Below, piece after piece: positions 13,403-42,109 of a stretch of 64,000 bases of DNA. The stretch spans positions 1-64,000 of the forward strand of contig PSLI01000004.1 of NCBI GenBank assembly GCA_040289515.1. Reading direction: 5' to 3'. Source of the stretch: Candidatus Sysuimicrobiota bacterium (lineage in GTDB: Bacteria > Sysuimicrobiota > Sysuimicrobiia > Sysuimicrobiales > Sysuimicrobiaceae). The notes beneath the pieces were generated by a model. The model had not been told where the DNA came from. It was given only the letters and a program-made list of their open reading frames with translations, and ran no database searches. How positions within the stretch are numbered: the first letter of the stretch is position 1; each line of letters opens with the position of its first letter. The translations under genes were made by a program, and so were the position numbers.

Positions 13403-13481
13403 GCCTTCCGGCCCGGAGGTCGGCGGTTACGGCCTCAGGAGGGTATGAGGAGACCAGGACGCAACAGGCTTCGGAGATACG

Positions 13482-13557
<76 letters not shown>

Positions 13558-13638
13558 ACGCGCCCAGGATTGTACCACACCCAGGCCCCCGCGGGCGCCG
13601 GCGGCGTATCATGGAAGCCGGAAGACCAGGAGGCGGCG

Positions 13639-26879: not shown

Positions 26880-27856
26880 GCTTTCCCGCATACCGGAGCC
26901 GACGGTTGCGGCGCACGGAGGCACTCCGGCGCCTGTCCCGGGAGGTGGAGCTATCTAGCTCCCACCTCATCGCGCCCCTGTTCGTCAAGGAGGGCATCCC
27001 GAACCCCGTGCCCATCCCCTCCCTGCCGGGTCAGGTGCAGCACACCCTGTCCAGTCTCGTGCAGGAGGTGGGCGAGCTGGTGGAGCTGGGGGTAGGTGCG
27101 GTGATCCTGTTCGGGATCCCTGCCCACAAGGACCCGGTGGGAAGCGGTGCCTGGGACGACCAGGGGATCGTGCAGCGGGCCCTGCGGGCGCTGCGGTCGG
27201 AGTTCCAAGACCGCGTGGTGCTGATGGCGGACCTGTGCCTGTGCGAGTACACCAACCACGGACACTGTGGGGTCCTGGCGGACGGCCCGGAGACGGTGGA
27301 CAACGACCGCACCCTGGAGCTGTACGCCCGCATCGCGACCAGCCAGGCCCGCGCGGGCGCGGACGTCATCGCGCCCAGCGGGGTGATGGACGGCCAGGTG
27401 GCCGCCATCCGCCGGGCCCTCGATGAGACGGGGTTCTCTCAGGTGGCCATCGTAAGCTACGCCGCCAAGTTTGCTTCGGCCTTCTACGGGCCGTTCCGGG
27501 AGGCCGCGGAGTCCGCGCCACGCTTTGGACACCGCCGAGCTTACCAGCTTGAGCCGGTCAACCTGCGGGCGGCGCTGCGCCGGGTGGCGGAGGAGGTGCA
27601 GGAGGGCGCGGACGCCGTGATGGTCAAGCCCGCCCTCCCGTACCTGGACGTGCTGCGGGAGGTGCGTCGACGCTTTTTCGTGCCCGTGGCCGCCTACTGC
27701 GTGAGCGGGGAGTACGCCATGGTGCACGCCGCGGCGCAGCGGGGCTGGCTGGATCTGGAATCTGCCATGATGGAGGTCCTGCTGTCCGTGCGGCGGGCGG
27801 GCGCGGATTGGATCCTCACGTACTTCGCCAAGGACGCGGCGCGGCACCTGCGGTGA
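26876..27856 (+). CDS. hemB: Porphobilinogen synthase
   Basis: RRLR, DLCLCEYTNHGHCG, KFASAFYGPFREA, MVKPA, SGEY. Confidence 0.97.
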   Translation: MSFPAYRSRRLRRTEALRRLSREVELSSSHLIAPLFVKEGIPNPVPIPSLPGQVQHTLSSLVQEVGELVELGVGAVILFGIPAHKDPVGSGAWDDQGIVQRALRALRSEFQDRVVLMADLCLCEYTNHGHCGVLADGPETVDNDRTLELYARIATSQARAGADVIAPSGVMDGQVAAIRRALDETGFSQVAIVSYAAKFASAFYGPFREAAESAPRFGHRRAYQLEPVNLRAALRRVAEEVQEGADAVMVKPALPYLDVLREVRRRFFVPVAAYCVSGEYAMVHAAAQRGWLDLESAMMEVLLSVRRAGADWILTYFAKDAARHLR

Positions 27857-29136
27857 GGCTGTCCTCCGAAGCCTTGTTCCAGCGGGCGCGGCAGGTGATG
27901 CCGGGGGGTGTCAGCAGCCCCGTGCGCGCCTTCCGCGCGGTAGGGGGCACGCCGCCGTTTTCGGTGCGAGGGATGGGCGCGTATGTGGTGGACGTGGAGG
28001 GCCGCCGCTACGTGGACTGCGTGGGCTCGTGGGGTGCGCTGATCTTGGGCCACGCCCACCCCGCGGTGGTGCAGGCCGCGCAGGCGGCGGTGGCGGACGG
28101 CAGTAGCTTCGGGGCACCCACCCCGTGGGAGGTAGAGTTCTGTGAGCGCCTGTGCCGGGCCATCCCGGGCATGGAGCGGGTGCGGCTCGTGAACTCGGGT
28201 ACCGAGGCGGTGATGAGCGCCGTGCGGGTGGCTCGCGCGGCCACGGGCCGTGAGGGGATCGTGAAGTTCGACGGGGGCTACCACGGGCACACAGACGCCC
28301 TCCTGGTGCAGGCGGGCTCCGGGGCGGCCACGTTCGGCGTGCCCGACAGCGCGGGCGTACCCGCCTCCGCGGTGCGGGCCTCCTTCTCCCTGCCGTGCAA
28401 CGACCTGGAGGCGGCCCAGGCCCTGTTCCGGCATCGGGGCCACGAGATCGCGGCGGTCCTGGTGGAGCCCGTGGCGGGCAACATGGGGACGGTGGCCCCT
28501 CGGCCCGAGTTTCTGCAGGGGCTGCGCGCGCTCATCCAAGAGTACGGTGCGCTGCTGGTGCTGGAGGAGGTCATCACAGGCTTCCGCCTGCGCTCCGGGG
28601 CGGCGCAGGACCTGTTTGGCGTGCGGGCCGACCTTGCGTGCTTGGGCAAGGTCATCGGCGGTGGGTTTCCCCTGGCCGCGTACGGGGGCAGGGCGGACCT
28701 CATGGGCTTGGTGGCCCCGGAGGGCCCCGTGTACCAGGCCGGAACCCTGTCGGGCAACCCTGTGGCCGTGCGGGCGGGCCTGGCCACCCTCCAGCAGCTG
28801 GAAGACGGAGGGGTGTACGGGCGGTTGGAGCAGCATGGTCGGATGCTGGAGGAGGGGCTGCAGGAGGCCGCCCGCAGGGCGGCTGTAGCCGTGCAGGTGA
28901 ACCGCGTGGGCTCCATGCTGACGGTGTTTTTCTGCGCGCACCCGGTGGTGGACTTCGCCACGGCCCGGAAGTCCGACGGGGCCCGGTTCGCCCGCTTCTT
29001 CCACGCCATGCTGGAACGGGGGGTGTACCTGCCCCCCTCACCCTTCGAGTCGTGGTTCTTGTCCGCGGTCCACGGGACCCGGGAGGTGGCCCACATCCTG
29101 GCGGCCTCGCAGGAGGCGTTCCGGGAGGCGGCATGA
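27853..29136 (+). CDS. hemL: Glutamate-1-semialdehyde 2,1-aminomutase
   Basis: PGGVSSPVRAF, NSGTEA, YHGH.D, GKVIGGG, QAGTLSGNP. Confidence 0.96.
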   Translation: MRLSSEALFQRARQVMPGGVSSPVRAFRAVGGTPPFSVRGMGAYVVDVEGRRYVDCVGSWGALILGHAHPAVVQAAQAAVADGSSFGAPTPWEVEFCERLCRAIPGMERVRLVNSGTEAVMSAVRVARAATGREGIVKFDGGYHGHTDALLVQAGSGAATFGVPDSAGVPASAVRASFSLPCNDLEAAQALFRHRGHEIAAVLVEPVAGNMGTVAPRPEFLQGLRALIQEYGALLVLEEVITGFRLRSGAAQDLFGVRADLACLGKVIGGGFPLAAYGGRADLMGLVAPEGPVYQAGTLSGNPVAVRAGLATLQQLEDGGVYGRLEQHGRMLEEGLQEAARRAAVAVQVNRVGSMLTVFFCAHPVVDFATARKSDGARFARFFHAMLERGVYLPPSPFESWFLSAVHGTREVAHILAASQEAFREAA

Positions 29137-29873
29137 GCGGACAGGTGCTGGTGGTGATGCCCCTGTACAACGAGGAGGCCACCGTGGAGGAGGTCCTCCA
29201 GGCGGTGTTGCGCTATGCGCCGCCGGGCGCGGACGTACTGGTGGTGGACGACGGGTCCACGGACCGGTCCCCGGAAATCCTGGCGCGCTTCCCCCAGGTG
29301 AAGGTGATCCGCCACCCGGAGAACCGCGGCTACGGCGCGTCCTTAATCGATGGGTTCCGCTATGCCCTGGAGAGGGGCTACGAGGTGGTGGTTACCGTGG
29401 ACTGCGACGCCCAGCACGAACCCTACCTCATCCCGGACCTGCTGAGCGCTTTGGAGAACGCGGAGATCGCCTCCGGGAGTCGCTACCTGCCCGGGTCCTC
29501 CCGCGGCCAGGAGCCTCCGCCGGACCGGGTGCGCATCAACCGGGAGGTGACGCAGCGGGTGAACGCCCTCACGGGCTACCAGCTCACCGACGCCTTCTGC
29601 GGCTTCAAGGCGTACCGGGCGGAGGCCCTGCGCCGGCTGCAGCTGGACGAACCCTCGTACGGGATGCCGCTGCAAGTGTGGGTGCAGGCGGCCCGGTGGG
29701 GGCTGCGCGTGCGGGAGATCCCCATCGGTCGCATTTACAAGAACCCGCACCGACGCTTCTGGGGAGGGCTGGACGATCCCGAGGTGCGGCTGCGCTACTA
29801 CCTGCAGGTGCTGGAGCGGGAGGCCTCCCGCTGGCTGCGCCAGCCCACCTGCTCGGGGGAGGGAGGTCCGTGA
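29133..29873 (+). CDS. Family 2 glycosyltransferase (DPM-synthase-like)
   Basis: VMPLYNEE, VDDGSTD, NRGYG, DCDAQH, GSRY, D..CGFKAY. Confidence 0.92.
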   Translation: MSGQVLVVMPLYNEEATVEEVLQAVLRYAPPGADVLVVDDGSTDRSPEILARFPQVKVIRHPENRGYGASLIDGFRYALERGYEVVVTVDCDAQHEPYLIPDLLSALENAEIASGSRYLPGSSRGQEPPPDRVRINREVTQRVNALTGYQLTDAFCGFKAYRAEALRRLQLDEPSYGMPLQVWVQAARWGLRVREIPIGRIYKNPHRRFWGGLDDPEVRLRYYLQVLEREASRWLRQPTCSGEGGP

Positions 29874-30550
29874 GGACGATCCTGGTCCTTGCCCCGCACC
29901 CGGACGACGCGGAGATCGCCATGGGCGGCACCATGGCGGTCCTGGTGGCGCAGGGCTGGCGGGTGGTGATGTGCGACCTGACGGACGGTGAACCCACCCC
30001 CGTGGGGACACCCGAGCGCAGACGCCAGGAGGCGGAGCAGGCGGCCCGCATCCTCGGGGTGGAGCGTCAGATCCTGGACCTGCCAAACCGTTTCCTGCTG
30101 GACGGGGTGGAGGCCCGCAAGAAGGTGGCCGCGGTGATCCGCGCGGTGCGGCCGGAGTGGCTGTTTGTGCCGTACTGGGAGGACGCACACCCTGACCACG
30201 TGCAGGCCGCAGCCCTGTGCGAGGCGGCACGGTTTTACGCCAAGCTCACCCACACGGACGTCCCGGGAGAGCCGTGGTACCCGCACCGCGTGGTGCACTT
30301 CTTCTCCACCCACTACCGAATGGTTCGCCGTCCCTCCTTCGTGTTCGACATCAGCGACACCCTGGAGCGCAAAATGGAAAGCCTTCGCGCGTACGAGAGC
30401 CAGTTCGGACCCGAGCGGGGCAAGCAGGCAGTTCTGGAGGCGGTGCTCCACGCGGCTCGCTACTTCGGTTCCCTCGTGGGCGTCCTGTACGGGGAGCCCT
30501 TCCTGCTGCGGGAGGAGCTCGGGGTGCGAAATCTGGAGGCACTGGTGTGA
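29870..30550 (+). CDS. bshB1: PIG-L/BshB1-like N-acetylglucosaminyl deacetylase
   Basis: APHPDDAE..MGGT, DLTDGE, HPDH, YESQF, GEPF. Confidence 0.85.
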   Translation: MRTILVLAPHPDDAEIAMGGTMAVLVAQGWRVVMCDLTDGEPTPVGTPERRRQEAEQAARILGVERQILDLPNRFLLDGVEARKKVAAVIRAVRPEWLFVPYWEDAHPDHVQAAALCEAARFYAKLTHTDVPGEPWYPHRVVHFFSTHYRMVRRPSFVFDISDTLERKMESLRAYESQFGPERGKQAVLEAVLHAARYFGSLVGVLYGEPFLLREELGVRNLEALV

Positions 30551-32079
30551 CCCGGTCCGAAGAACTCTCCCTGCCCACCCGCCACGGGGAGGTGCTGTGC
30601 GTCCCGGAGTTTGGCCGCTGGCTGGAGGTGGCGGAGCAAAACGCCCGCAGGCTGGAGTCCCAGCGGGTGCTGCGGGAGCTGCGGGAGCAGGCCCGGCGCG
30701 AGCTGGTGCAGCGCGCGGGAGCACTGCTGGAGCGCTGGGGCCTGCACCGCCCCGAAGTGGGCGCCGGCCCGTGGGTCGGTACGGGCCACCAGCCCGCCCT
30801 GTACCACCCTGGGATCTGGATCCGCACGTGGGCGGTGGCGGCCTGCCAGCAGCGCGGTGCCGTGGGGGTGCACGTGGGGGTGGACTCGGACGAGTGCGAG
30901 CGTTTCGGAGCGCGGGTTCCCCGCCGGGACGACGGCAGGCTGCGGGTAGTGGAGCGCGTCCTGGCAGAGGGGGGCCGGGACGTGCCCTTCGAGTGCCTGC
31001 CGGCTCCCGCAGAAGAGGCCTGGCGCGCCTTCTGCGCACGCCTTCAGGAGGACGTGGCCACCCTGGGGCTTCCGGAGGTTGAAGGGCGCCTGGCGCGCGC
31101 GGAGCGGGCCGGGCTGGCGAGCTTGGCCCGTGCCCGGCACCTGGGCGAATTCGGGGCCGGCCTGCGCCGGCATCTGGAGCTGGACTGCGCGCCGGTCCGG
31201 TACCTGGAGGTGACCGCCTCGGAGCTTTCTAGAACCCGGGCGTTCGCCCGCTTCGCTAGCTGGATCGCGCAGGACGCAGAGCGCTTCTGGGCATGCCACA
31301 ACCAGGCCCTGGAGGACTACCGGCGCCAGCAGGACCTGCGGTCGCCCGCGCAGCCGTTCCCCAACCTGCGGCGGGAAGGTGGACGGGTGGAACTACCCTT
31401 CTGGCTGGTGCGGGATGGAGTGCGGCAGCCCGTGTTCGTGCAGCCAAACCGTCCTCCCGTGGCCTTCTGCCGGGGTGCGGCGGTGGGAGAGCTGTCAGAG
31501 GAGGGGCTGGAGGGCCTGCGGCCCCGGGCGGTGACCCTCACCCTGTTCCTGCGCCTGGCGGTGTGCGACCTGTTCGTGCACGGGCTGGGAGGTGCCCGGT
31601 ACGACCGGGTTACCGACCGGCTGGTGCGGGAGTTCTTTGACGTGGAACCGCCGCCGTTCGCGGTGCTGACCGCCACCTACCACCTGCCCCTGGCACGGCA
31701 TCCGGATCCCCGGGCCGCGTACCAGACCGCCCAGCGCCTGTGGCAGGACCTCCACCACAACCCGGACCGTCACCTTCCACGGGACGGCGAAGTGGCCAAC
31801 CTGGTGGAGGAGAAGTGGCGGTGCATCCAGGCCTTGGAAGCACCGGGCCTACCCCGCCGGACCCGCCGGGAGCTCACGCAGCGCATCCGGGCCCTCAACG
31901 AGGCGCTCCGGGCCCGCCTGCAGGACCGAATCCGTCAGGTGGAGGCGGAGCTGGAGAGCCTGCGGCGCGACGTGGAAGAACACCAGGTGGCCGCGGACCG
32001 CACCTACCCCTTTTTCTTGTTCGACCCGGAGCTCCTGCGCACGTACTTCCGGGCGAGGGAGGAAGCGCGTTGCCGGTAG
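30547..32079 (+). CDS. Hypothetical protein, distantly BshC-like ligase
   Basis: TGHQP (cf. BshC TGQQ), D.D, HGLGGARYD, C-terminal coiled coil; follows bshB1-like gene. Confidence 0.6.
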   Translation: MTRSEELSLPTRHGEVLCVPEFGRWLEVAEQNARRLESQRVLRELREQARRELVQRAGALLERWGLHRPEVGAGPWVGTGHQPALYHPGIWIRTWAVAACQQRGAVGVHVGVDSDECERFGARVPRRDDGRLRVVERVLAEGGRDVPFECLPAPAEEAWRAFCARLQEDVATLGLPEVEGRLARAERAGLASLARARHLGEFGAGLRRHLELDCAPVRYLEVTASELSRTRAFARFASWIAQDAERFWACHNQALEDYRRQQDLRSPAQPFPNLRREGGRVELPFWLVRDGVRQPVFVQPNRPPVAFCRGAAVGELSEEGLEGLRPRAVTLTLFLRLAVCDLFVHGLGGARYDRVTDRLVREFFDVEPPPFAVLTATYHLPLARHPDPRAAYQTAQRLWQDLHHNPDRHLPRDGEVANLVEEKWRCIQALEAPGLPRRTRRELTQRIRALNEALRARLQDRIRQVEAELESLRRDVEEHQVAADRTYPFFLFDPELLRTYFRAREEARCR

Positions 32080-32783
32080 CACGTCATGCGGAGAGGGTGC
32101 GGGCCTCCCCGGTTTGGGGAACTCGGGCAGCTTCCGGTCCCCCGAGCCCCGTGGTCACGGAGGGGCTGGGCCGGCGTTTTGGGCCCGTGGTGGCGCTGCA
32201 CGACGTCACCCTGCGGGTACAGCAGGGTCAGTGCCTGCTGCTGGTGGGGCCCAACGGCTCCGGGAAGACCACCCTGTTGCGGGTTCTGGCCACCGCGCTG
32301 CGCCCCACGGAGGGACGCGCGTGGGTGTGGGGCTATGAGGTGACCGCGGAAGGGTGGCGGGTGCGAGAGGTGTGCGCGTACCTGGGCACCGCCCCGGGGG
32401 TGTACGGGGCGCTTTCGGGCTTCGAGAACTTACGCCTGGCCGCGGACCTGTGCGGAAAGCCCGTTGGGCGTGTCCCTGAGCTGCTGGCGCGGGTCGGGCT
32501 GATGCCGGCGGCGCACCGGCTGGTGGCCAGCTACAGCCTCGGGATGCGCCGGCGGCTGGCCCTGGCCCGGGCCTTCCTGCAGGAGCCCCTGGTGGCGCTG
32601 TTGGACGAGCCTTTTGTGGGCCTGGATGAGGAGGGTCGGGAGCTGGTGCGGCAGCTGGTGGAGGAGGTCAAAAGCCGCGCTGGGGCCGTGGTTCTGGCCA
32701 CTCACGACGGGGACCGGGCGCGGGGCCTGTACGACCGGGTCGTGTGCCTGGAGGCGGGCAGTTTGCGGGCAGCGGGCGGATGA
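32070..32783 (+). CDS. ccmA: Heme exporter ATP-binding protein CcmA
   Basis: GPNGSGKTT, YSLGMRRR, LLDEP; start uncertain (TTG 32070 or GTG 32151). Confidence 0.88.
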   Translation: MPVARHAERVRASPVWGTRAASGPPSPVVTEGLGRRFGPVVALHDVTLRVQQGQCLLLVGPNGSGKTTLLRVLATALRPTEGRAWVWGYEVTAEGWRVREVCAYLGTAPGVYGALSGFENLRLAADLCGKPVGRVPELLARVGLMPAAHRLVASYSLGMRRRLALARAFLQEPLVALLDEPFVGLDEEGRELVRQLVEEVKSRAGAVVLATHDGDRARGLYDRVVCLEAGSLRAAGG

Positions 32784-33433
32784 GAGCAGCTCGCCGCGTC
32801 CTGGCCCTGGTGCGCAAGGATCTGGTGCTGGAGTGGCGGGGCAGGGACGTGCTGGTGCCCGCGGGTGCCTTCGGGCTCGCGGTGTTGCTGGTGCTGGGCC
32901 TGGTTTCCGGCGGCGGGCCGCAGGACGCGCCCACCTTACTGTGGGTTTCTGTGCTGCTGGCCTCCGTGCTGGCGGCGGGCCGCAGCGCGGAGCGGGAAGG
33001 AGAGGAGGGAACGCTGGAAGTGCTGCTGCTGTACCCGGGCAGCCGCGAGGACCTGTTCTGGGGGCGACACCTGGCCCTGTGCGTGCTGCTGGGAGCGCTG
33101 GCTTTGGGCCTGTGGGCCGCACAGCTGTTCCTGTTCAACGCTCCGGCCCGCGGGTGGCCCGCCGTGCTGCTGGCGGGGACGCTGGCGACAGTGGGGCTGA
33201 GTGCGTCGGGCACCCTGCTGGCGGCCCTGCTGGGCCACGTGCGGGCGGGTCGGCTGCTGTTGCCCTTGCTGTTCTTGCCCACCTCGGTTCCCGTGCTGCT
33301 GGCCGGTGTGCGTCTCACGGAGGCGGCCGCCGCGGGCACCACACTCGGCCCGTGGTGGGGCGTGCTGGTGGTGTTCGACCTGTTGTTCCTGCTGGTGGGT
33401 CCCGTGCTGTTTGAGGTGGCGGTGGAGGGCTAG
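32780..33433 (+). CDS. ccmB: Heme exporter permease CcmB
   Basis: KDL..EWR, E.EEGTLE.L, LLLPLL.LP..VPVL; 6 TM. Confidence 0.9.
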   Translation: MRAARRVLALVRKDLVLEWRGRDVLVPAGAFGLAVLLVLGLVSGGGPQDAPTLLWVSVLLASVLAAGRSAEREGEEGTLEVLLLYPGSREDLFWGRHLALCVLLGALALGLWAAQLFLFNAPARGWPAVLLAGTLATVGLSASGTLLAALLGHVRAGRLLLPLLFLPTSVPVLLAGVRLTEAAAAGTTLGPWWGVLVVFDLLFLLVGPVLFEVAVEG

Positions 33434-34072
33434 GTGCGGGCCTTCGCCATGGGCGCAACGGCGGCGCTGTTGGCCCTGGGGCTGTGGCTGGCCCTGAGAG
33501 CGTCTCCCCCAGACGCTTACCAGGGGGAATACGTGCGGATCATGTACGTGCACGTGCCTGCCGCCGTGTCCAGCTACGCCGCCGCAGCGGTGGCCTGCGT
33601 GAGCGGCGCCCTGTACCTGTGGCGGCGCCGGTCGGAGTACGACGCGTGGGCCCGTGCGGGGGCGGAGCTGGCCAGCTTGTTCGCGGGCCTCACCCTGCTG
33701 ACCGGGATGCTGTGGGGCAAGCCCGTGTGGGGTGTGTGGTGGGCGTGGGATGCCCGGCTGGTCTCCACCGCGGTGCTGTTCCTGCTGTACGTGGGTTGCC
33801 TGCTGGTGCGGGACCTGTCGGAGGATCCGGTGCGCGGCCGCCGCCTGGCGGCGGCTTTGGGCGTGGTGGCCTTCCTAGACGTGCCGCTGGTGCACTACTC
33901 CGTGGTGTGGTTCCGAACGCTGCACCAGGGCCCCTCCATTAGACCTGGAGCCGTGCAGATGGCACCGGAGTTTTTGGCCCCCCTGGCGGTGAACGTGCTG
34001 GCCTACCTGGTGCTGTCGGGCTTCCTCCTGGTAGAACGGGCCCGCCTGGCGCGCCTGGAGGCGGAGCGGTGA
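33434..34072 (+). CDS. ccmC: Heme exporter CcmC
   Basis: YVHVP, WGKPVWGVWWAWDARL (WWD motif), TLHQG. Confidence 0.95.
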   Translation: MRAFAMGATAALLALGLWLALRASPPDAYQGEYVRIMYVHVPAAVSSYAAAAVACVSGALYLWRRRSEYDAWARAGAELASLFAGLTLLTGMLWGKPVWGVWWAWDARLVSTAVLFLLYVGCLLVRDLSEDPVRGRRLAAALGVVAFLDVPLVHYSVVWFRTLHQGPSIRPGAVQMAPEFLAPLAVNVLAYLVLSGFLLVERARLARLEAER

Positions 34073-34197
34073 GGGCTTGGGGGTGGGTGCTGGCCGCGTA
34101 CGGATGCGCGGCCGTGCTGCTCGGAGCTTACGCGTGGCGGTTGTGGCGGCGTCTGGAGCGAGCCTCGGGTGGCCGTGCGAGGGAGGGCGACGCGTGA
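34069..34197 (+). CDS. ccmD: CcmD-like small membrane protein (42 aa, not in ORF track)
   Basis: MRAWGWVLAAYGCAAVLLGAYAWRLWRRLERASGGRAREGDA; GTGA overlaps with both ccmC and ccmE. Confidence 0.75.
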   Translation: MRAWGWVLAAYGCAAVLLGAYAWRLWRRLERASGGRAREGDA

Positions 34198-34595
34198 GGC
34201 GGATGCGCGTGCTGTTGGCGGTGCTCCTGACCGCCGGGTCCCTGGGCTACGTGGTGGCCGGAGGGCTGCGGGAGGCGGTGGTGTACTACCTCACGCCCAC
34301 GGAGGTGCGTTCCATGCGCCCGGAGCCCCACAGGCCCGTACGGGTGGGCGGGCAGGTACTGCCCGGCTCCCTGCGAAGGGAAGGGCCGGAGGTGCGCTTC
34401 ATCCTCTGGGACGGCCAGACCCAGCTGCCCGTACGCTTCCGGGGTACCGTGGAAGGGCTGCTAGCGGAGGCACAGGGCGCCGTGGTGGAGGGCCGGGTGG
34501 TGGAGGGGATCCTCCACGCCCGCACCGTGGTGGTCAAGCACTCGGAGGAGTACACCCCGTCCCGAACTCCGCACGACCGCCCCCGCGGACCGTAA
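34194..34595 (+). CDS. ccmE: Heme chaperone CcmE
   Basis: N-terminal TM, YYLTP, RVGGQV, KHSEEY (HxxxY). Confidence 0.92.
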   Translation: MRRMRVLLAVLLTAGSLGYVVAGGLREAVVYYLTPTEVRSMRPEPHRPVRVGGQVLPGSLRREGPEVRFILWDGQTQLPVRFRGTVEGLLAEAQGAVVEGRVVEGILHARTVVVKHSEEYTPSRTPHDRPRGP

Positions 34596-34648: not shown

Positions 34649-34673
34649 GGCGGGGGCCACCGAGCCCCCGTTT
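34649..34673 (+). terminator. Hairpin/possible terminator between ccmE and the respiratory operon
   Basis: CGGGGGC-caccga-GCCCCCG followed by TTT. Confidence 0.45.
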
Positions 34674-34752
34674 GCGTTCTGGGCCGAGACGAAGAGGAAT
34701 CCGGGCACCGGAAGTCAAAGACACACGCCAGCTCCTCGGTCAGGGAGGCAGG

Positions 34753-35655
34753 TTGCTGCGACGCGAAGCCAGCTGTTCGTGCAACTGCAGGGTCCCAGGG
34801 AGCTTGCGACTCTCTCTGTCGGTGGCGATGGCGGCGTGGGTGCTGGCGGGCTGCCAGCCGTACGTCCGGGTGAGCAGCCCCGTCCGGGAGGTCTACGAGC
34901 CCCTGGAGGGGTTCGCGGTGCGCATGAACTTCATGCCCCGCAAACCCGACGCGGACGGGGGCCGGAAGATCTACGAGGCGCGGTGCGCGGTCTGCCACGG
35001 ACCGCAGGGGCGCGGGGACGGGCCCATGGCCCAGCAGCTCACGGCCCCGGAGAAGAACCCGTACACCGACTTTTTGAGCCTGTTCCGCATCCATCGCAAG
35101 GCGGAACCGTTGCCGAGCCGGCCCGCCCGGTTTGACAACCTGGATCAGATGCGGCTAAACGCCCCCTTCGCTATGTTCGAGACCATCGCCCGCGGGCGTC
35201 CCCACACCGCCATGCCCGGGTTCCAGCACCCCGCCTACGGTGCCACGGACGGCGGCGAGCCGCGCCTACGGGATCAGGAGATCTGGGACGTGCTGTTCTG
35301 GGAGTGGAGCCGCACCACCAGCCGGGAGCGCCTGGTGCAGGGCCGGCGGATCTACAACCAGCTGTGCGCCCGCTGCCACGGCGTAGGAGGGGACGGGAAT
35401 GGGCCGGAGGCGGGCCGCATCCGGCAGCAAGTGTGGACGTGGGCGCGGGGCGTGGGGCCGGGTGTTTTCACGGACCGGGACTGGATGGCGTACCGCAAGC
35501 CCACGGAGCTGTACCAGCGGATTTCAGAAGGGGTGCGGCGGCGAGGGCTGGAGCTGATGCCGGCCTACGCCGACAAGCTGTCGGCGGACCAGATCTGGAC
35601 CGTGGTAGAGTACCTGTGGACGTTCGTGTACACACCCCCGAAGGACCTGCGGTAG
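34753..35655 (+). CDS. Diheme c-type cytochrome, probable lipoprotein
   Basis: LAGC lipobox; CAVCH..AMPGF and CARCH..LMPAY; start uncertain. Confidence 0.88.
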   Translation: MLRREASCSCNCRVPGSLRLSLSVAMAAWVLAGCQPYVRVSSPVREVYEPLEGFAVRMNFMPRKPDADGGRKIYEARCAVCHGPQGRGDGPMAQQLTAPEKNPYTDFLSLFRIHRKAEPLPSRPARFDNLDQMRLNAPFAMFETIARGRPHTAMPGFQHPAYGATDGGEPRLRDQEIWDVLFWEWSRTTSRERLVQGRRIYNQLCARCHGVGGDGNGPEAGRIRQQVWTWARGVGPGVFTDRDWMAYRKPTELYQRISEGVRRRGLELMPAYADKLSADQIWTVVEYLWTFVYTPPKDLR

Positions 35656-35666: not shown

Positions 35667-36311
35667 GTGGATCGTCGCACGTTCTTAAAGGCCCTGAGCG
35701 CGCTGCCCGTGGTGGGGGCTGTGGGAGCCTTCCTGGCGCCCTTGCTGCGCTACCTGAAGCCGAACCTGGAACGGGGACTGGGCCTGCCGCAGGGGAAGCT
35801 ACCGCCCGACCTGGCGGAGGGGGACCTCCCCACGGGCGAGCCGCTGCCCATCGCTACCTTGGAGGAGCTGCGGGAACCGTGGTCCAGCAAGTTCTTCGTG
35901 TTCACGCAGAAGTACCCACAGTACACCCCGGAGCTGGCCAAGGCGGCCACGGTGCCGGGGGTGGCCATCAAGCTGCCGTGGAAGCTGCCCTTTCCGGGCT
36001 ACAAGGGAGGGAAGGAGCCCACGGACATCGTGATCTTCTCCCGCATCTGTCCGCACCTGGGCTGCATCTTCAACTACGTGCCCAACTGGCGGGAGGTGAC
36101 GGCGGGCTACGGGGGCTACGTACCGCCGGAGGACCGGCGGCACGGGCTGCTCGCGTGCCCGTGCCACCTGTCCATCTACGATCCCGCGGACCGGGAACTT
36201 CCTGGCCGGGTGCTGTCGGGCCCCGCGCCCCGGCCGCCCCGCTACTTCACCTACGAGATCCGGGGCGGGGTGATCGTGGTCACCGGGGCGGAACCCGGCG
36301 GGATCGCCTGA
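35667..36311 (+). CDS. Rieske [2Fe-2S] subunit of a Rieske/cyt b complex
   Basis: Tat motif DRRTFLK; CPHLGC and CPCHLSIY; GPAPRP. Confidence 0.95.
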   Translation: MDRRTFLKALSALPVVGAVGAFLAPLLRYLKPNLERGLGLPQGKLPPDLAEGDLPTGEPLPIATLEELREPWSSKFFVFTQKYPQYTPELAKAATVPGVAIKLPWKLPFPGYKGGKEPTDIVIFSRICPHLGCIFNYVPNWREVTAGYGGYVPPEDRRHGLLACPCHLSIYDPADRELPGRVLSGPAPRPPRYFTYEIRGGVIVVTGAEPGGIA

Positions 36312-36324: not shown

Positions 36325-37473
36325 GTGTGGGACCGGTTGCGAGAGTGGTTCCGGGAGCGCAAGGAAAAGCTGGACCTGTTCGACGAGACCCACGTCGACC
36401 GCCAGGACAACCCCCTGTACATCCTCGGCCAGATCGTCTACTTCGCGTGGATCGCCGTGGTGGTAAGCGGCATCCTCCTCATGATCTGGTACGAGCCTAC
36501 CACCCACGGCGCGTACAACTCCATTCTGCGCATCCAGCGGGAGGTGCCCCTGGGTTGGCTGACCCGCGGCGTGCACAAGTACGGCGCGGACATGCTGATC
36601 CTGGCCATCACCCTGCGCATCTACCGGATGTATTTCCTGGGAGAGTACAAACGGCCCAACGAACTGTCGTGGATGATCCTGTTCGGCTCCCTGGTGCTGG
36701 CCATGATCTCCGGGCTCACGGGCTACCTGCTCATCTGGAACCAGCGGGCCTTCTGGGCGGCCAAGGTGGTGCTCACGGTGGCCGTGTACCTGGACCAGCT
36801 CCCCCTGATCGGCCAAACGCGGTTCGGCAGCGCCATCGCCTTCGCCTTCCTGGGCGGGCCGGCGGAGGGGCAGGGAACCCTCACCCGGTTCTACGCCATC
36901 CACTTCGGGATCTCCGCGCTGCTGCTGGTGGCCTCGGAGGTGTACTTCTACTTCACCCGCCGGCGCCGGTTCGTCCTGTCCCCCACGGCCCTGGTGATCC
37001 TGCTGGCTATGCTGGTGGTAACGAGCTACGTGTTCCCCGCAGAGATGGGCCGCCGGGCCGACCCCAACCGCACGCCCCTGCCCATCCTGTCCGACTGGTA
37101 CTTCCTGGCCCTGTACCAGTACGTGAAGTATACCCCGCCCCTGTGGGCGGGCCTGGGCCCCGGGCTTTTGATCGCTTACGGCATGCTGGTCCCCTTTTTG
37201 GACCGCAGCAAGGGCCGCAGGCCCTCCGAGCGCCCCTTCTTCACGGTGGTGGGGGTCATGGCCCTGACGTACTTCCTCGTGTTCACGGCCCTCATCCTGT
37301 TCAACATCGCGGTGATCGGCCGGGATCCCCACGTGGTCCTACTGGTGACCGCGGCGACTTTGACCCTGGGCCTGGTGCTGGAGTTCCGCTACCGGCGACG
37401 GAAGAAGCTGGCGGAGCTCGCCGCACCGACTCCCGCGCCGCGCGCGGCGCCAGCTCGGGCCGCGGCGGGGTGA
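36325..37473 (+). CDS. Cytochrome b (unsplit, about 8 TM), only the two heme-bL His ligands retained
   Basis: RGVH, TGYLL.W.Q, TLTRFYAIH, Qo-like ILSDWYFL; bH positions are Arg and Tyr. Confidence 0.92.
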   Translation: MWDRLREWFRERKEKLDLFDETHVDRQDNPLYILGQIVYFAWIAVVVSGILLMIWYEPTTHGAYNSILRIQREVPLGWLTRGVHKYGADMLILAITLRIYRMYFLGEYKRPNELSWMILFGSLVLAMISGLTGYLLIWNQRAFWAAKVVLTVAVYLDQLPLIGQTRFGSAIAFAFLGGPAEGQGTLTRFYAIHFGISALLLVASEVYFYFTRRRRFVLSPTALVILLAMLVVTSYVFPAEMGRRADPNRTPLPILSDWYFLALYQYVKYTPPLWAGLGPGLLIAYGMLVPFLDRSKGRRPSERPFFTVVGVMALTYFLVFTALILFNIAVIGRDPHVVLLVTAATLTLGLVLEFRYRRRKKLAELAAPTPAPRAAPARAAAG

Positions 37474-37480
37474 GGGGGCG

Positions 37481-37744
37481 TTGGAAGTCGTGCGGTTCGC
37501 GGCAAGCTTCGGTGTGGCCGTGTTGAGCCTGCACGGAGCCTGGCAGGCATTCGGGCTGGCTTGGGCGGACCCACGGGCGGAGCGCTGGCTCGTCCTGGGC
37601 GTGTACCTGGCCGCCCTGCTGGCCTCAGGAGCATGGGCGGGCTACCTCGTCTACGCCGCGGACCGCAGGGCGGGACGGGTGCGGCGACGGGTGGGGCTGT
37701 ACGAGCGGTGGCTGGCAACGCCTCGGGGAGGGAGGGGGCCGTGA
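37481..37744 (+). CDS. Small 2-TM membrane protein
   Basis: In-operon ORF after GAGGGGG, two hydrophobic segments. Confidence 0.65.
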   Translation: MEVVRFAASFGVAVLSLHGAWQAFGLAWADPRAERWLVLGVYLAALLASGAWAGYLVYAADRRAGRVRRRVGLYERWLATPRGGRGP

Positions 37745-37941
37745 GGAAGGACCGCAGCACATGGCACTTCGCCCTGGCCGGTTTCCTGGCGGTGCTGGCC
37801 CTAGCCGGAGTGGCCCTTATGGTGTACGGGGAGTGGTTTGACCAGCGGCTGGTGGCCTCCGGGGCCCTGGGCGTGATCCTGGTTTTGTACGCGGCCATCG
37901 TAGTGCTGTTCCGGAAGGCGGGTCTCACCGCGGAGGAGTAG
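37741..37941 (+). CDS. Small 2-TM membrane protein (66 aa)
   Basis: GTGA overlap, GGAGG RBS, two hydrophobic segments. Confidence 0.7.
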   Translation: MRKDRSTWHFALAGFLAVLALAGVALMVYGEWFDQRLVASGALGVILVLYAAIVVLFRKAGLTAEE

Positions 37942-37942: not shown

Positions 37943-39118
37943 GTGTACCGACGGCTGCTTTTGAGCCTGCAGAGCGCCACCCTGAGGCTGGACACCGTCC
38001 TAAACCGCGTCCTGCCCCAGGACTTCAACCCCCTGTACTACACGGGCGGGCTTGCGAACCTGTTCCTCACCATCCTGGTGGTGTCGGGGATCCTCATTTT
38101 CCTGTACTACGAGCCCAGCCTGGAGGGCGCGTACGCCTCCGTGGAGTTCCTGACCCGGGACGTGCCCTACGGGGTGGTGTTCCGGGGGATCCACCGGTAC
38201 GCCGCGGACGCCTACATGGTGGCGATCCTGCTGCACCTGTTCCGCAACTGGTTCACGGACCGCTACCGGGAGGCGCGGGACAGCCAGTGGCTGTCGGGCA
38301 TGTTCCTGCTGGTGGTCTCGGGCTTTGCGGGCTTCACGGGCTACCTGCTGGTGTGGGACGAGCGAGCCCAGCTGCTTACAAGCCTCACGGCGCAGGCCCT
38401 ACGGTCGGTGCCCCTGGTGGGAGGCTGGCTGGCCCGGGTGTTCCTGGGCGGGCCGGGTGTGAGCGACACGACCCTGTCCCGGTTCCTGTACCTGCATGTG
38501 GGGCCCGCCATGACCGTGTACGTGCTCCTGTGGTGGCACTACGTACGCCTGCGCCACCCCAAGATCTGGCCTCCCGCGGTGTGGGTGCTGTTCAGCCTGG
38601 GCCTGCTGTTCATCCTCGCCTCCGCGCTGCCCGCGGCCAGCGGCCGTCCCGCGCAGCCGGGCGCGACCCCGGGGGGGTTCGCGGTGGATTGGTTCTTCCT
38701 CTGGCCGTACGTGCTCGCCCGGTGGCTGGCGCCAGCCTGGGCCATGGTCCTGGTGGGAGCCCTTGTGGCGTACGGCATGGTCATCCCCTACACCCTACGG
38801 GAGACGCCCGAGCAGCGCGGCCTGCGGGCCCTGGGCCAGGCGGTGGTGGTGGAGGAGAACTGCACCGGCTGCGAGCTGTGCTACTACGACTGCCCGTACA
38901 ACGCCATCTACATGGTACCCAGTCCCTACCCCGGCAAGAGCCGGGCCGCGGCCAACCGCAAGCTGCTGGCGGTGGTGGTGGACTCCCGGTGTGTGGAGTG
39001 CGGGATCTGCATCGGCGCCTGCCCGTTCGAGGCGCTGGAGCTGCCCAGGATGCTGGAAAAGGACGTGCAGCAGAGAATCCGGCGGGGCGCCCAGGTGGAG
39101 GCGCCCGTCCCTTCGTGA
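37943..39118 (+). CDS. Second cytochrome b fused to a C-terminal 2x[4Fe-4S] ferredoxin domain
   Basis: Four His (38192, 38234, 38495, 38537); VDWFFL; CTGCELCYYDCP and CVECGICIGACP. Confidence 0.92.
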   Translation: MYRRLLLSLQSATLRLDTVLNRVLPQDFNPLYYTGGLANLFLTILVVSGILIFLYYEPSLEGAYASVEFLTRDVPYGVVFRGIHRYAADAYMVAILLHLFRNWFTDRYREARDSQWLSGMFLLVVSGFAGFTGYLLVWDERAQLLTSLTAQALRSVPLVGGWLARVFLGGPGVSDTTLSRFLYLHVGPAMTVYVLLWWHYVRLRHPKIWPPAVWVLFSLGLLFILASALPAASGRPAQPGATPGGFAVDWFFLWPYVLARWLAPAWAMVLVGALVAYGMVIPYTLRETPEQRGLRALGQAVVVEENCTGCELCYYDCPYNAIYMVPSPYPGKSRAAANRKLLAVVVDSRCVECGICIGACPFEALELPRMLEKDVQQRIRRGAQVEAPVPS

Positions 39119-39127
39119 GGCGCAGCC

Positions 39128-39562
39128 ATGGGGACAGCACCGGAGCGCACCCCGCAAGCCAATCCCCAAGGACCGGCGCGGGTGGTGGGGTTTTTGTGTG
39201 ACTGGGCGGTGCGCAGCGAGGGACTGCTGAACGCGGACGACACCCTGGTGGGCATGCCCCACGTGACCGTGATCCGGGTGCCCTGTTCCGGTTTCGTAAA
39301 GCCCGCGTGGCTGGAGCTGGCCCTGCGCAGTGGTGCTGCGGGCACCTTCGTGTGCGGGTGCCCCATGGGCGACTGCCTGAACCGGGAGGGTAACTGGATC
39401 ATGGAGGGCCGCATCGACCAGCTGCGCAAGCGGCTGAGCCGCCAGAAGGTGGATCCCGACCGGGTGGCCTTTTTCGCCTTCGGGCTGCACGAGCGGGAGG
39501 CCTTCCTTCAAGCCGTGGCGGAGTTCGTGAACAGGCTCGCCGGATCCGGAGGGAACCGGTGA
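39128..39562 (+). CDS. MvhD/FlpD-like [2Fe-2S] protein
   Basis: GFLCDW, IRVPCSG, GCPMGDC..REGN, V.P.RV pattern of MvhD. Confidence 0.85.
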   Translation: MGTAPERTPQANPQGPARVVGFLCDWAVRSEGLLNADDTLVGMPHVTVIRVPCSGFVKPAWLELALRSGAAGTFVCGCPMGDCLNREGNWIMEGRIDQLRKRLSRQKVDPDRVAFFAFGLHEREAFLQAVAEFVNRLAGSGGNR

Positions 39563-39689: not shown

Positions 39690-41084
39690 ATGCTGGTGTG
39701 GATGTTCACGGACGAGCGGTGGAGTTCTGCCCGCAGGTTCCTGTACGCGGGCACCCTGTGGGCGCTGGTGGCCCTGGCGTACGAGGCCCTGGCGGCCGCC
39801 CAGCGGGCGTGGCCGGCCCTGCTGTCGGAGTTTCCATGGGCTTCCCACGGGCGGGTGGTGGCCTTAAGCCACGACCTGTGGGTTTTCGGCTTTTTGTCCC
39901 AGCTGCTGGTGGCCTCGGCCCTGCGGGTGATGGGGCAGACGGACCGGGAGGGGATCTGGAGCGAGCCCGTAGCGCACCTGGCTGTTTGGCTGTGGAACCT
40001 AGCCCAGGCCCTGAGCTGGTGGTGGCTGTCGGTGGGCTGGACCCGGGGAAGGCCGCTGGCGGAGGCCCCGTGGCCGGTGGACGGGCTGCGTGTGCTGGCC
40101 GCTTTGGCGCTGTGGTGGGTGGTGCGCAACAGCCTGGTTCGGTCGTCCCGGCGGGAAGCTGGCTTGGCCCTGGTGGCGGTGGCCTTCGCGGGTCTGCCGC
40201 TGGTGCTGGTGCTGGGCAAGGGGCTGTTCTCGCCCTTCGACAACCCTTACCACGGCCTCCTGGACGCCCTGAGCCAGGCCTTCCTGCGGGCGGGCTTGGT
40301 GTGGCTGTGGCTAGTACCTCTGGCGGGCGGTGTGTCTTTGTACGTGCTGTCCGCCCTTACGGGCCGGCCGGGTCTGTCGGAGGGCATGGGCCTTTCGGCG
40401 GTGGTGGGGCTGGTGAGCTTTGGCGCCCTGGCGGGGCCTGCGGAGTTTGTATGGGGCCCGGTCCCCTTCTGGGTGCAGACCGTGGGCACCGTGGCGCGGG
40501 GCCTGCTGCTGCTGCCCGCGGCGACCCTCCTGGCCGGCGTGGTTCGGTCCCTGGACGGCCATTGGCGCAGCCTGGGGAACCACCCGGGCGTGGTGCTCAC
40601 CCTGGCGGGATGGCTCGCGGTGTTCTGCGGGGCGGCGGCGGACGCCCTCGCCTCCCTGGTGGGGCCCAGCCGGCTGGTGCACCTGTCCCTGTGGGGTGAG
40701 GGTGTTCGGGTGCTCCTGCTGACCGGCGCGGGTGCGGTGGCCGCCGGATGCGTGTACCTGTTGACCCCTCATGTGCTGGGCCGATCCCTGGTCAGCAGGG
40801 CTGCCGCGTGGCGCCACCTCTGGCTGGTGGTGGTGGGATGGTCGCTTTCCGCCCCCTTCCTTCTGCTGGGCGGGTTGGTGCAGGGTGCGGTGTGGGTCAC
40901 GGGCACAGTCCCCTTCGCGCACGCGGTGCAGGCCGTGCGGCCCTTGCTGGGGGGGGGCTTTGTGGGCCTGCTGGTGGCGTGGGCCGCGCAGGGAGTGTTC
41001 GCGTGGAATGTGTTCCTGACCGCGGACTCCGGGGAGCCCGTGCCCGCCGCAGAGCAGGAGCTGGCCGCGGTGGCGGGGTCCTGA
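39690..41084 (+). CDS. CcoN-like (cbb3 subunit I fold) membrane protein lacking heme/Cu histidines
   Basis: GR..L..VFGF, GRPLAE.PWPVD, G..DAL.Q, AGP, VP.W.Q, H...W landmarks of CcoN; ligand His positions replaced. Confidence 0.8.
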   Translation: MLVWMFTDERWSSARRFLYAGTLWALVALAYEALAAAQRAWPALLSEFPWASHGRVVALSHDLWVFGFLSQLLVASALRVMGQTDREGIWSEPVAHLAVWLWNLAQALSWWWLSVGWTRGRPLAEAPWPVDGLRVLAALALWWVVRNSLVRSSRREAGLALVAVAFAGLPLVLVLGKGLFSPFDNPYHGLLDALSQAFLRAGLVWLWLVPLAGGVSLYVLSALTGRPGLSEGMGLSAVVGLVSFGALAGPAEFVWGPVPFWVQTVGTVARGLLLLPAATLLAGVVRSLDGHWRSLGNHPGVVLTLAGWLAVFCGAAADALASLVGPSRLVHLSLWGEGVRVLLLTGAGAVAAGCVYLLTPHVLGRSLVSRAAAWRHLWLVVVGWSLSAPFLLLGGLVQGAVWVTGTVPFAHAVQAVRPLLGGGFVGLLVAWAAQGVFAWNVFLTADSGEPVPAAEQELAAVAGS

Positions 41085-41099
41085 GGTGCAGGAGGTGTC

Positions 41100-41561
41100 G
41101 TGGTGAGGGATCCCGTAGCGCACCTGGTGCGACTGGCGGTGGCGGCCGTGCTGTGCGGGTTCGTGGCCACCGTGCTCCTGCCAGCGTTGGACCCCGCGGT
41201 GCGCACGGCGCGGGCAGCGCCCCTGTCGGCGCAGGCGGCGCGGGGACGGTGGGTGTACGCCCGGGAGGGGTGTGCGGCCTGTCACACCCAGCAGGTGCGT
41301 ACGGTGGAGGCGGGGTTCGGCATGGTGCGCCGGAGGGGCGACGTGGGAGAGGCTTCCTCGCCAAGCCAGTACGCGGGGCAGGACCCGGCCCTGTTGGGGC
41401 GGCTGCGGATGGGGCCGGACCTGACGCACGTGGCCTCCCGTGCCTCCGCGGAAGAGCTGCGTTCGCTAGTTCGGTCCGGCACGGGAGGGATGCCCGCGTA
41501 CCGGCACCTGCCCGATCCGGAACTGGCGGACCTCGTGGCGTACCTGCTGACCCTGCGATAG
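41100..41561 (+). CDS. CcoO-like monoheme cytochrome c
   Basis: TM anchor; GR.VY.REGCAACHTQQVR, R.GPDL, MPAY. Confidence 0.88.
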   Translation: MVRDPVAHLVRLAVAAVLCGFVATVLLPALDPAVRTARAAPLSAQAARGRWVYAREGCAACHTQQVRTVEAGFGMVRRRGDVGEASSPSQYAGQDPALLGRLRMGPDLTHVASRASAEELRSLVRSGTGGMPAYRHLPDPELADLVAYLLTLR

Positions 41562-41569
41562 GAGGAAGG

Positions 41570-42109
41570 ATGGAGGCCCAAACGCCGCGACCGTCCCGCT
41601 GGCTGGCGCTGCTGTACGTGCTGCTGCCTCTGTGGGCAGTGACGTACCTGTTCGTGGCGGGAGGACTGGTGGCTCCGGAGGTCCGGCCGGTGGCCCGGAA
41701 CGTGGAGGGCGTCTCGGCGGGTGTCGGCGCGGCACCGGACGGGTCCGAGCAGGTGCTGGGGATCCTCGAGGTGGTGCCTGAGGACGCGCGGGACGACCAG
41801 CCGCCCCGTCCGGTTACCGCGGCCATGCTGGCGCAGGCGAAGGCACGGTACGACACCCTGTGCGCCGTCTGCCACGGCCCGGAAGGCCGGGGCGACGGCC
41901 CCGCGGGCGCGGCTCTTAACCCCAAGCCGGTCAACTTCCATTTCCGCGCTTTCCAGGAGCGCATGCCCGTGGGTGCCACGCACTGGGTGATCAAGAACGG
42001 CCTGGGTAACACCGCCCGCCGCAGCGGGATGCCCGCCTTTGGCCAGCTGCCTGACGACCAGATCTGGGCCCTGGTGGAGTACATACGGCGGCTGGGCCGC
42101 CGGCCATGA
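41570..42109 (+). CDS. Membrane-anchored monoheme cytochrome c (CcoP-like anchor)
   Basis: RWLALLY..LWAVTYL anchor; CAVCH, GMPAF. Confidence 0.88.
   Translation: MEAQTPRPSRWLALLYVLLPLWAVTYLFVAGGLVAPEVRPVARNVEGVSAGVGAAPDGSEQVLGILEVVPEDARDDQPPRPVTAAMLAQAKARYDTLCAVCHGPEGRGDGPAGAALNPKPVNFHFRAFQERMPVGATHWVIKNGLGNTARRSGMPAFGQLPDDQIWALVEYIRRLGRRP

Follow-up and report, generated by a model that had tools for sequence, protein, structure and literature searches.

A Rieske gene cluster of Candidatus Sysuimicrobiota encodes two unlike cytochromes b, one carrying a predicted cytoplasmic iron-sulfur arm

We analysed a stretch of 64,000 nucleotides (nt) from a Candidatus Sysuimicrobiota bacterium (contig PSLI01000004.1 of assembly GCA_040289515.1, positions 1 to 64,000; this whole stretch is called the window below) and found a Rieske-type protein encoded together with two non-identical cytochromes b. 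The first of these, b-1, has the ligands of the outer haem bL and lacks those of the inner haem bH. The second, b-2, has all four haem-binding histidines, ends in a ferredoxin domain with motifs for two [4Fe-4S] clusters, and is followed by the gene of an MvhD/FlpD-type protein. What is new here is the combination of a Rieske/cytochrome b complex with a known, unstudied cytochrome b-FeS-MvhD module. The best-supported reading, which in our judgement stands at about even odds, is an asymmetric Rieske/b-1/b-2 complex in which b-2/ferredoxin and MvhD would form the cytoplasmic electron arm. The four genes at the centre of this proposal are the following:

35667..36311, + strand: divergent Rieske-type [2Fe-2S] protein with a twin-arginine translocation (TAT)-like N-terminus; CPHLGC at nt 36048, CPCH at nt 36156.
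36325..37473, + strand: cytochrome b-1, b6 plus subunit-IV-like; PF00033 at 4.5e-29 (102.1 bits), PF00032 at 1.3e-7.
37943..39118, + strand: cytochrome b-2 with a 2x[4Fe-4S] ferredoxin domain, 391 residues, from Pfam, motifs and alignment to solved b6.
39128..39562, + strand: MvhD/FlpD-type protein, putative [2Fe-2S], 144 residues; PF02662 at 8.2e-25.

The open reading frame (ORF) of b-2 starts with a GTG one base past the stop of a small ORF, and GGAGGAG lies just upstream. The protein matches PF00033 (7e-31, 108 bits against a cut-off of 27.2) and PF13631 (7.6e-24), and its residues 300-373 match Fer4 families, including PF00037 (3.6e-11) and PF12838 (1.5e-9). Four histidines, His84, His98, His185 and His199 (nt 38192, 38234, 38495 and 38537), align with the haem ligands of solved cytochrome b6; which of them serve bL and which bH is presumed. 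Two CxxCxxCxxxCP motifs at nt 38861-38896 and 38990-39025 (residues 307-318 and 350-361) hold the cysteines 307/310/313/317 and 350/353/356/360. These four histidines and eight cysteines are invariant or at least 90% conserved among 47 orthologues, a conservation by which we rejected the idea that b-2 is a pseudogene or a chance ORF. Several residues of the cytoplasmic (n) side are also strongly conserved (N29, P30, Y32, Y33, T105, R107, R112, W116, Y200 and R202). The quinol-oxidising (Qo) position reads VDWF in the window and drifts among orthologues (VDWF, VAWF, VDVF, LDVF, VDWL). There is no PF00032 match in b-2, and its membrane part stops after helix F, so that helices G and H are missing. 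A haem cn of the b6f type was considered and rejected, as the position of the b6 cysteine, which we take to bind haem cn, is Tyr in b-2 and Leu in b-1.

A hydropathy scan of b-2 finds the four most hydrophobic helices, and the AlphaFold model of a 34%-identical fused homologue (pLDDT, the predicted local distance difference test, 83; pTM, the predicted template modelling score, 0.83) places six long helices ahead of the Fe-S domain. The N-terminus of cytochrome b presumably lies on the n side, as in solved structures, and six helices counted from there bring the Fe-S domain to the cytoplasmic n side, with which a fold of the complex (below) agrees. A first-pass annotation, made from the letters of the window, had claimed all four haem histidines, the VDWF at Qo, the two cysteine motifs, six membrane helices and a cytoplasm-facing Fe-S domain. 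The histidines match exactly, and the VDWF and both motifs were confirmed. The helix count is borne out by the homologue model, and the sidedness is supported by that count and by the fold of the complex.

The MvhD gene starts 9 nt downstream of b-2. Its product scores 87.6 bits against PF02662 (FlpD; cut-off 22.3) and matches a solved MvhD (5odc_D, 1.2e-15), and its N-terminus is not hydrophobic, in line with the earlier claim that it has no signal peptide. The claim of MvhD-like cysteine spacing stood in part: four cysteines are conserved (C24, C78 and C83 invariant, C53 at least 90%, in 47 orthologues), but where solved MvhD has the second Cys of its CxxC, the window protein has Ala, and its pattern is not the canonical one. 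We folded b-1 residues 1-345, b-2 and MvhD as three chains, with 47-row alignments from the same loci, and scored MvhD. The interface score (ipSAE, interaction prediction score from aligned errors) of MvhD was 0.67, 0.67 and 0.58, and the best of three controls gave 0.00; the mark applied to this score is reached by 116/157 solved complexes and by 2/215 mismatched pairs. At least 86% of contacts agree between runs, and the partner pLDDT is at least 75. In this fold, the contact residues of MvhD (18-25, 47-58 and 79-88) are the loops with C24, C53, C78 and C83. Those of b-2 are 316-319, 351-361, the C-terminal helix 367-386, the N-terminus 11-32, 105-107 in the B-C loop and 203-205 in the D-E turn. 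The N-terminus, 105-107 and 203-205 are, we assume, n-side elements as in solved cytochromes b, and the fold agrees with a cytoplasmic Fe-S arm because MvhD touches them. If the usual wiring of two-cluster ferredoxins holds, as we assume, C350, C353, C356 and C317 bind one cluster and C307, C310, C313 and C360 the other; in the model MvhD would adjoin the former, and the latter would face the haem.

A search of 5.8 billion proteins, with 8000 candidates scored, returned 472 homologues of b-2, and the best 120 of these 472 are all cytochrome b plus Fer4 proteins of 370-405 residues. Such genes currently carry no other labels than 'cytochrome b N-terminal domain-containing protein' or 'ferredoxin', which makes the b-2 architecture relevant to genome annotation. 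A scan of species genomes gave 80 loci of three kinds: CSP1-3/'Sysuimicrobiota'-type (56-93% identity), Melainabacteria/Obscuribacterales (about 40%) and Aquificaceae (32-35%). MvhD-like sequence directly follows b-2 in 68/80 of them, often with an overlap of 4 or 13 nt or in the same frame. The 12 loci without a tblastn match to MvhD comprise three that end at or just past b-2 (L062, L069 and L071) and nine others, among which six Aquificaceae loci (L075-L080) hold a long fused frame or end. Many CSP1-3 orthologues of MvhD (L010, L016, L031, L050 and others) have a Pro/Ala-rich low-complexity C-terminal tail and a total length of 175-209 residues; the window MvhD has no such tail.

In Aquificaceae, b-2 and MvhD are a single ORF of 647-652 residues (six complete ORFs; a seventh, L076, is in alignment A5), and Pfam reads the single chain of locus L077 as cytochrome b, Fer4 and FlpD. 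PF00033, Fer4 and PF02662 also occur together in 18 of the 21 homologues longer than 685 residues, four of which add a cytochrome c domain. A natural fusion counts as classical evidence of working contact between proteins that are encoded separately elsewhere, as b-2 and MvhD are in the window. A b-2/MvhD interface, which the first-pass annotation had predicted, is likewise supported by genes that adjoin or overlap at nearly all loci and by a fold that passes its controls.

The L077 fusion has in addition a further short helix and, at its C-terminus, a beta-rich domain of some 130 residues without a family match. In a fold search, all matches to the Aquificota fusion were cytochrome b chains, aligned along some 290-350 columns, with nothing informative for the Fe-S/MvhD part or the C-terminal beta domain. 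In its locus (3842-14038), the fusion lies between a divergent COX2-like/COX1/SCO1/NirS set and hemerythrin, NnrS-like and Rrf2 genes, a setting related to nitric oxide.

In b-1, the haem bL ligands H84 and H193 and the Qo motif LSDWYF are kept, and Arg98 and Tyr207 replace the two haem bH ligands. When b-1 is aligned independently to solved b6, Arg98 and Tyr207 lie opposite the second His of helices B and D, which we take to be His100 and His202, the bH ligands. In alignment A1, two b-1 sequences retain one His each in helices B and D, the first in either case, and the sequence of b-1 has no further His in these two helices. We tabulated 61 orthologues, the window copy and those of 60 loci. 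The bL pair is His/His in 61/61. The helix-B bH position is Arg in 60/61 and Lys in 1/61, and the helix-D bH position is Tyr in 30, Phe in 24, Leu in 4 and Met, Trp and His (L060) in 1 each, so that both bH ligands are lost in 60/61 and one ligand in the remaining one. The Qo motif is LSDWYF in 60/61 and YSDWYF in 1/61; among 47 sequences S256-L261 and E205 are invariant and R98 is conserved in at least 90%. The first-pass annotation did not remark on this loss. As b-1 is without bH ligands, b-2 provides the sole n-side haem of the cluster and is not an add-on. The two proteins look complementary in sequence, one with the quinol site and bL, the other with bL, the only bH and the Fe-S exit.

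The exceptional b-1 of L060 (1534-3186) is longer, at 551 residues; with Lys and His at the bH positions and YSDWYF, it may be an intermediate state. The Melainabacteria b-1 proteins (L044-L068; for example, L047 6328-8973) have 590-643 residues and a long C-terminal extension without a Pfam match. Two small ORFs (131 and 117 residues) separate b-1 from b-2 in L047, and the Rieske gene of Melainabacteria has intact cbb3-type genes upstream of it.

The Rieske-type protein of the window is divergent. It scores 16.9 bits against PF00355, below the cut-off of 20.3, and its best matches among solved structures are all Rieske proteins, at weak values (8hn2_A is the best at 2.9e-5). Its orthologue in L047 matches PF00355 at 1.8e-9. 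The two cluster-binding boxes (CPHLGC 128-133 and CPCH 164-167) are separated by 30 residues, a spacing that seems long.

The order Rieske-b-1-(small ORFs)-b-2-MvhD is syntenic in CSP1-3-type and Melainabacteria loci wherever the contig reaches. At E <= 1e-40, b-2 was found in 82/94 genomes of the phylum and in 47/54 high-quality genomes; it was found in 0/8 genomes of genus g15, which belongs to the same order. A PF00033 search of four g15 genomes and one genome of genus g6, which is also without b-2, revealed one cytochrome b in each of two (G030 and G037), with four His and PEWY. The copy of G030 (L099 954-2460) adjoins a compact Rieske gene, and that of G037 is L100; the other three genomes (G033, G034 and G013) gave no PF00033 match. 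The three Aquificota genomes searched each have one canonical four-His PEWY cytochrome b besides the fusion. The g15 control matches what would be predicted if b-1 depended functionally on b-2, within a small sample of related genomes.

The fused cytochrome b-FeS-MvhD architecture has been in print since 2014 and is uncharacterised. In the available text of Kao & Hunte 2014, a 'PDWF-FeS clade' combines cytochrome b, 4Fe-4S and MvhD in one polypeptide, in a cluster described there as having no Rieske protein, and an Alicycliphilus cytochrome b carries ferredoxin and flavin oxidoreductase domains (PMC4122944). In our quick tree (below), b-2 falls on the same side of the main split as the fused proteins. 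The window differs from this clade, as far as that text describes it, in that MvhD is a separate gene and that the pair lies two genes downstream of a Rieske gene, beside a bH-less b-1. A 2026 preprint on Ferrigenium describes two cytochrome b/Fe-S proteins that are encoded in an eNOR operon and detected in the proteome, for which its authors propose a quinol:NAD+ oxidoreductase role (10.64898/2026.01.22.701106). A Chloroflexi protein, RME88945.1, with cytochrome b6, DMSOR-beta-like and FlpD domains is given without comment in Table A3 of PMC8756737. The gene combination of complexes III and IV in Melainabacteria is mentioned in PMC6349859, of which the available text holds neither '4Fe-4S' nor 'fused', and none of the terms 'cytochrome b', 'complex III' and 'Rieske' occurs in the text obtained for the CSP1-3 paper (PMC11604079). 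Literature searches on the module and on eNOR yielded no reports beyond these. The Rieske-linked split form with a bH-less b-1 was found in no paper, in main texts (supplements not covered).

In the asymmetric complex proposed here, b-1 would supply the quinol-oxidising Qo site and one outer haem bL, with no inner haem, and b-2 would supply bL, the only bH and two [4Fe-4S] clusters, to which MvhD would add a [2Fe-2S] cluster. The Qo site of b-1 would oxidise menaquinol and send one electron to the Rieske protein, the cytochromes c and an oxidase. Since b-1 has no bH, the second electron would have to pass to the bL of the neighbouring b-2. Its route would be bL(b-1), bL(b-2), bH(b-2), cluster I, cluster II and the [2Fe-2S] cluster of MvhD, and from there a soluble cytoplasmic acceptor. 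The Qi half of the Q cycle would be replaced or supplemented by this Fe-S exit. The data show the domains with their ligands, their conservation and synteny, the natural fusions and the loss of bH ligands in b-1, and they predict an n-side b-2/MvhD interface; we infer that b-1 pairs with b-2, that an electron steps between their bL haems, in what order it visits the clusters, which way it flows and that a soluble carrier accepts it. A bolder version of the same proposal, which we advance tentatively and hold to be distinctly the less probable of the two, is a natural heterodimeric complex III in which one cytochrome b would have shed its inner haem together with Qi. The other would deliver the low-potential electron of bifurcation to cytoplasmic Fe-S, directly charging a soluble carrier where other complexes complete a Q cycle. 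Were it true, the cluster would encode a quinone-based electron-bifurcating machine with a cytoplasmic outlet.

The gene content of the genome (1.99 Mb in 76 contigs, 96.7% complete) bears on both versions. Its cytochromes b are b-1 and b-2 only, the window MvhD is its sole FlpD, and the cluster is the only candidate quinol:cytochrome c oxidoreductase found in it by sequence; no NrfD-family (ACIII-like) subunit is present in the genome. Two intact COX1 genes lie on other contigs. Complex I is complete and includes NuoF, and there is a second NuoD. The CCG proteins are an HdrD/GlpC-like protein (Fer4_8 plus 2 CCG, 509 residues, on another contig), LutAB and a 1018-residue frame. The first-pass annotation had described an MvhD without Hdr or hydrogenase, and the genome-wide search agrees as to the latter: there is no NiFe hydrogenase above cut-off (best 22.6 bits) and no second FlpD, HdrA itself not being searched. 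No partner candidate in the genome is linked to the cluster by any evidence.

Several points weigh against the asymmetric complex. The fold scored MvhD only and lists no contact of b-1, and no result shows b-1 and b-2 touching. The fold also departs from the calibration of its score, as it has three chains and alignments of its own, and its pass may be partly memory, as solved Hdr/Mvh complexes exist. All 61 b-1 orthologues were collected via b-2, and their count is therefore silent on whether a bH-less b-1 also occurs alone. The stand-alone fused homologues (Aquificota, Chloroflexota, PDWF-FeS) have no b-1 or neighbouring Rieske gene, which means that the b-2 module can function by itself. 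By an estimate from textbook potentials, it is unlikely that an electron from menaquinol bifurcation, crossing against the membrane potential, reduces ferredoxin or NAD+. A carrier of moderate potential would have to take it up, and the neighbouring genes encode no such acceptor. Should the cluster be the sole complex III, every second respiratory electron would have to drain into the cytoplasm, which calls for a sink of high flux. A Qi site may, moreover, be retained in b-2.

The rival that survives best, which we nonetheless consider unlikely, takes b-2/ferredoxin and MvhD as an independent transmembrane wire, probably a homodimer, that links cytoplasmic Fe-S with cytochromes c of the periplasm or with the oxidase-like module; service to the same chain would be the only reason why its genes stand in one operon with Rieske and b-1. 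Fused forms without an adjacent Rieske or b-1 favour it, as do the Aquificota fusions beside NirS, SCO1, COX1/COX2-like, hemerythrin, NnrS-like and Rrf2 genes, the cytochrome c domain in 4/21 of the longer homologues, and the COX1-family gene in the cluster of the window, of its closest relatives and of Melainabacteria. The PDWF-FeS clade without Rieske (PMC4122944) and the Ferrigenium eNOR operon (10.64898/2026.01.22.701106), each as described in the accessible parts of these papers, point the same way. However, most CSP1-3 loci have no oxidase-like gene in the cluster, and an independent wire would leave the bL of b-1 without an onward partner. It also leaves unexplained the constant pairing of a bH-less b-1 with b-2, as opposed to the four-His cytochrome b of the two sister genomes that lack b-2.

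The same anatomy could also serve a reversed flow, from a cytoplasmic reductant through MvhD and the 2x[4Fe-4S] domain to the bH of b-2. From there the electrons would either go to quinone, at a Qi-like pocket that has been kept, or move on towards b-1. This would resemble the ferredoxin:plastoquinone route long proposed for cyclic electron flow through b6f. Ferredoxin-type Fe-S clusters usually have a low potential, and a path from Fe-S through haem b to menaquinone runs downhill, which speaks for this direction. So do the strong conservation of the n-side residues of b-2 and the presence of the module in Melainabacteria, relatives of Cyanobacteria. In addition, b-2 is b6-like with a Tyr at the position of the haem cn Cys, and Fe-S could take the place of haem cn. 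Yet no donor is encoded nearby, no hydrogenase was found in the genome, a NuoF-containing complex I is present, and the loss of bH in b-1 is left unexplained; we rate reversed flow as a somewhat poorer prospect still than the independent wire. A membrane-anchored Hdr/Mvh-type system, in which MvhD would bridge to a distant HdrA- or HdrD-like flavin/CCG enzyme, has in its favour the connector role of MvhD in solved Mvh-Hdr and Fdh-Hdr complexes and the one HdrD/GlpC-like protein (509 residues) on another contig, but appears very improbable, as no NiFe hydrogenase scores above cut-off, the remaining CCG proteins are LutAB-type or within the 1018-residue frame, no such gene is syntenic in the 80 loci, and the cytochrome b is of the bc/b6f type, not of the NarI/HdrE type.

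The origin of b-2 was addressed with a quick tree, inferred by maximum likelihood from 58 cytochrome b cores (13 b-1, 13 b-2, 24 fused and 8 canonical). A split between b-1 plus canonical sequences and b-2 plus fused sequences has a support of 99 in the Shimodaira-Hasegawa-like approximate likelihood ratio test (SH-aLRT); b-1 forms one clade (99), the fused forms form another (99), and b-2 lies outside the fused clade. Long branches meet in this tree, and none of the named sequences of Kao & Hunte 2014 is included. The motifs NPLY..G, VVSGIL..YEP..GAY.S and AYGM..P, from which the first-pass annotation had suggested a duplication, are indeed present in the translations of both b-1 and b-2. The duplication itself did not hold up, as the tree separates the two (SH-aLRT 99), and a local duplication of b-1 is rejected to the extent that a quick tree with meeting long branches allows. 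On this evidence, b-1 and b-2 would be old paralogues, and a Rieske operon would have recruited b-2 from among the relatives of the Fe-S-fused cytochromes b.

The cluster shares with canonical Rieske/cytochrome b systems (bc1, b6f and the Firmicute-type menaquinol:cytochrome c reductase) a Rieske gene, PF00033 proteins and cytochromes c in one operon. In b-1 it has a b6 plus subunit-IV-like protein whose Qo motif resembles the PDWY seen where menaquinol is used, and in b-2 a four-His two-haem core (PMC4122944). It differs from them in having two non-identical cytochromes b, of which b-1 is without bH ligands and b-2 has no helices G/H, a drifting Qo motif and n-side Fe-S domains, and in having no haem cn Cys. 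The eNOR-operon cytochrome b/Fe-S proteins, as far as they are described in the accessible preprint text, are alike in their cytoplasmic Fe-S (plus FlpD or FAD/NADH) domains beside genes of the haem-copper superfamily, and the Aquificota fusions likewise lie beside NirS and COX1/COX2-like genes. The eNOR systems, in the same text, are Rieske-less and have intact NO-reductase-type enzymes, whereas the COX1-like protein of the window has lost most ligands, and most relatives of the window have no COX1-like gene in the cluster. With MvhAGD-HdrABC and Fdh-Hdr, the window shares an MvhD-fold protein that adjoins a two-cluster ferredoxin-type domain; there the likeness ends, as in the window a membrane cytochrome b carries the ferredoxin domain as its tail, MvhD has an altered Cys pattern, the module comprises neither HdrA nor a flavin, and the genome has no NiFe hydrogenase above cut-off. 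The Rieske/cytochrome b complexes of anammox bacteria may be compared by analogy only, in that a low-potential branch would leave to a cytoplasmic acceptor. Anammox complexes carry a flavin NAD(P) oxidoreductase subunit, and we know of no haem-deficient cytochrome b or MvhD in them. The generation of NAD(P)H has been proposed for these complexes (PMC12954380, available text).

A different version of the Rieske/cytochrome b complex is thus encoded across almost a whole uncultured phylum and in non-photosynthetic relatives of Cyanobacteria; to our knowledge, every complex of this type studied so far is a symmetric dimer whose Qi site gives the low-potential electron back to the quinone pool. We know of electron transfer between two bL haems only from engineered bc1. 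If b-1 and b-2 do pair, this transfer would become obligatory in a natural enzyme, which would offer a natural test case. Such a pair would also serve as a testable model of how Rieske/b complexes could supply the cytoplasm with reducing power, a role proposed in anammox bacteria, and its built-in Fe-S arm would parallel the debated passage of electrons from ferredoxin to b6f in cyclic flow.

The window has a G+C content of about 70%, and ORFs and Pfam place its respiratory genes on one strand in a single run of about 34.6-42.1 kb. Besides the four genes above, the run contains:

34672..35655, + strand: dihaem cytochrome c; PF00034 at 5.2e-20, PF13442 at 2.8e-19; CAVCH at nt 34984, CARCH at nt 35365.
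37741..37941, + strand: small two-helix membrane protein by hydropathy, 66 residues from the GTG at 37741; the ORF is open from 37561.
39690..41084, + strand: COX1-like membrane protein; PF00115 at 4.3e-19.
41100..41561, + strand: FixO-like monohaem cytochrome c; PF02433 at 7e-13; CAACH at nt 41271.
41570..42109, + strand: membrane-anchored monohaem cytochrome c; PF13442 at 6.4e-12; CAVCH at nt 41861.

The dihaem cytochrome c, which is kept upstream of the Rieske gene in related loci, has a lipobox-like N-terminus (LAGC), and its true start is uncertain. The small two-helix protein has no Pfam match above cut-off, and its position is weakly conserved in related loci. The stretch 39690-42109 is a module shaped like that of cbb3 (COX1-like, FixO-like and a further cytochrome c), in which the catalytic slot seems to be without metal ligands. 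The COX1-like protein, a weak match to PF00115, has His at 2/10 of the columns where 17/17 Melainabacteria CcoN have His, and its gene is found downstream of MvhD solely in the closest relatives (L001-L009 and L043). Upstream of the run, the region 23900-34595 contains likely haem biosynthesis genes (from translations only), a glycosyltransferase, a PIG-L/LmbE-type deacetylase, a 620-residue ORF without a family match and likely cytochrome c maturation genes, of which an ATP-binding cassette (ABC) ATPase (31740-32783) is the sole Pfam-scanned member. Judged by these upstream genes, the respiratory operon seems to lie in one cluster with functions that supply haem and mature cytochrome c.

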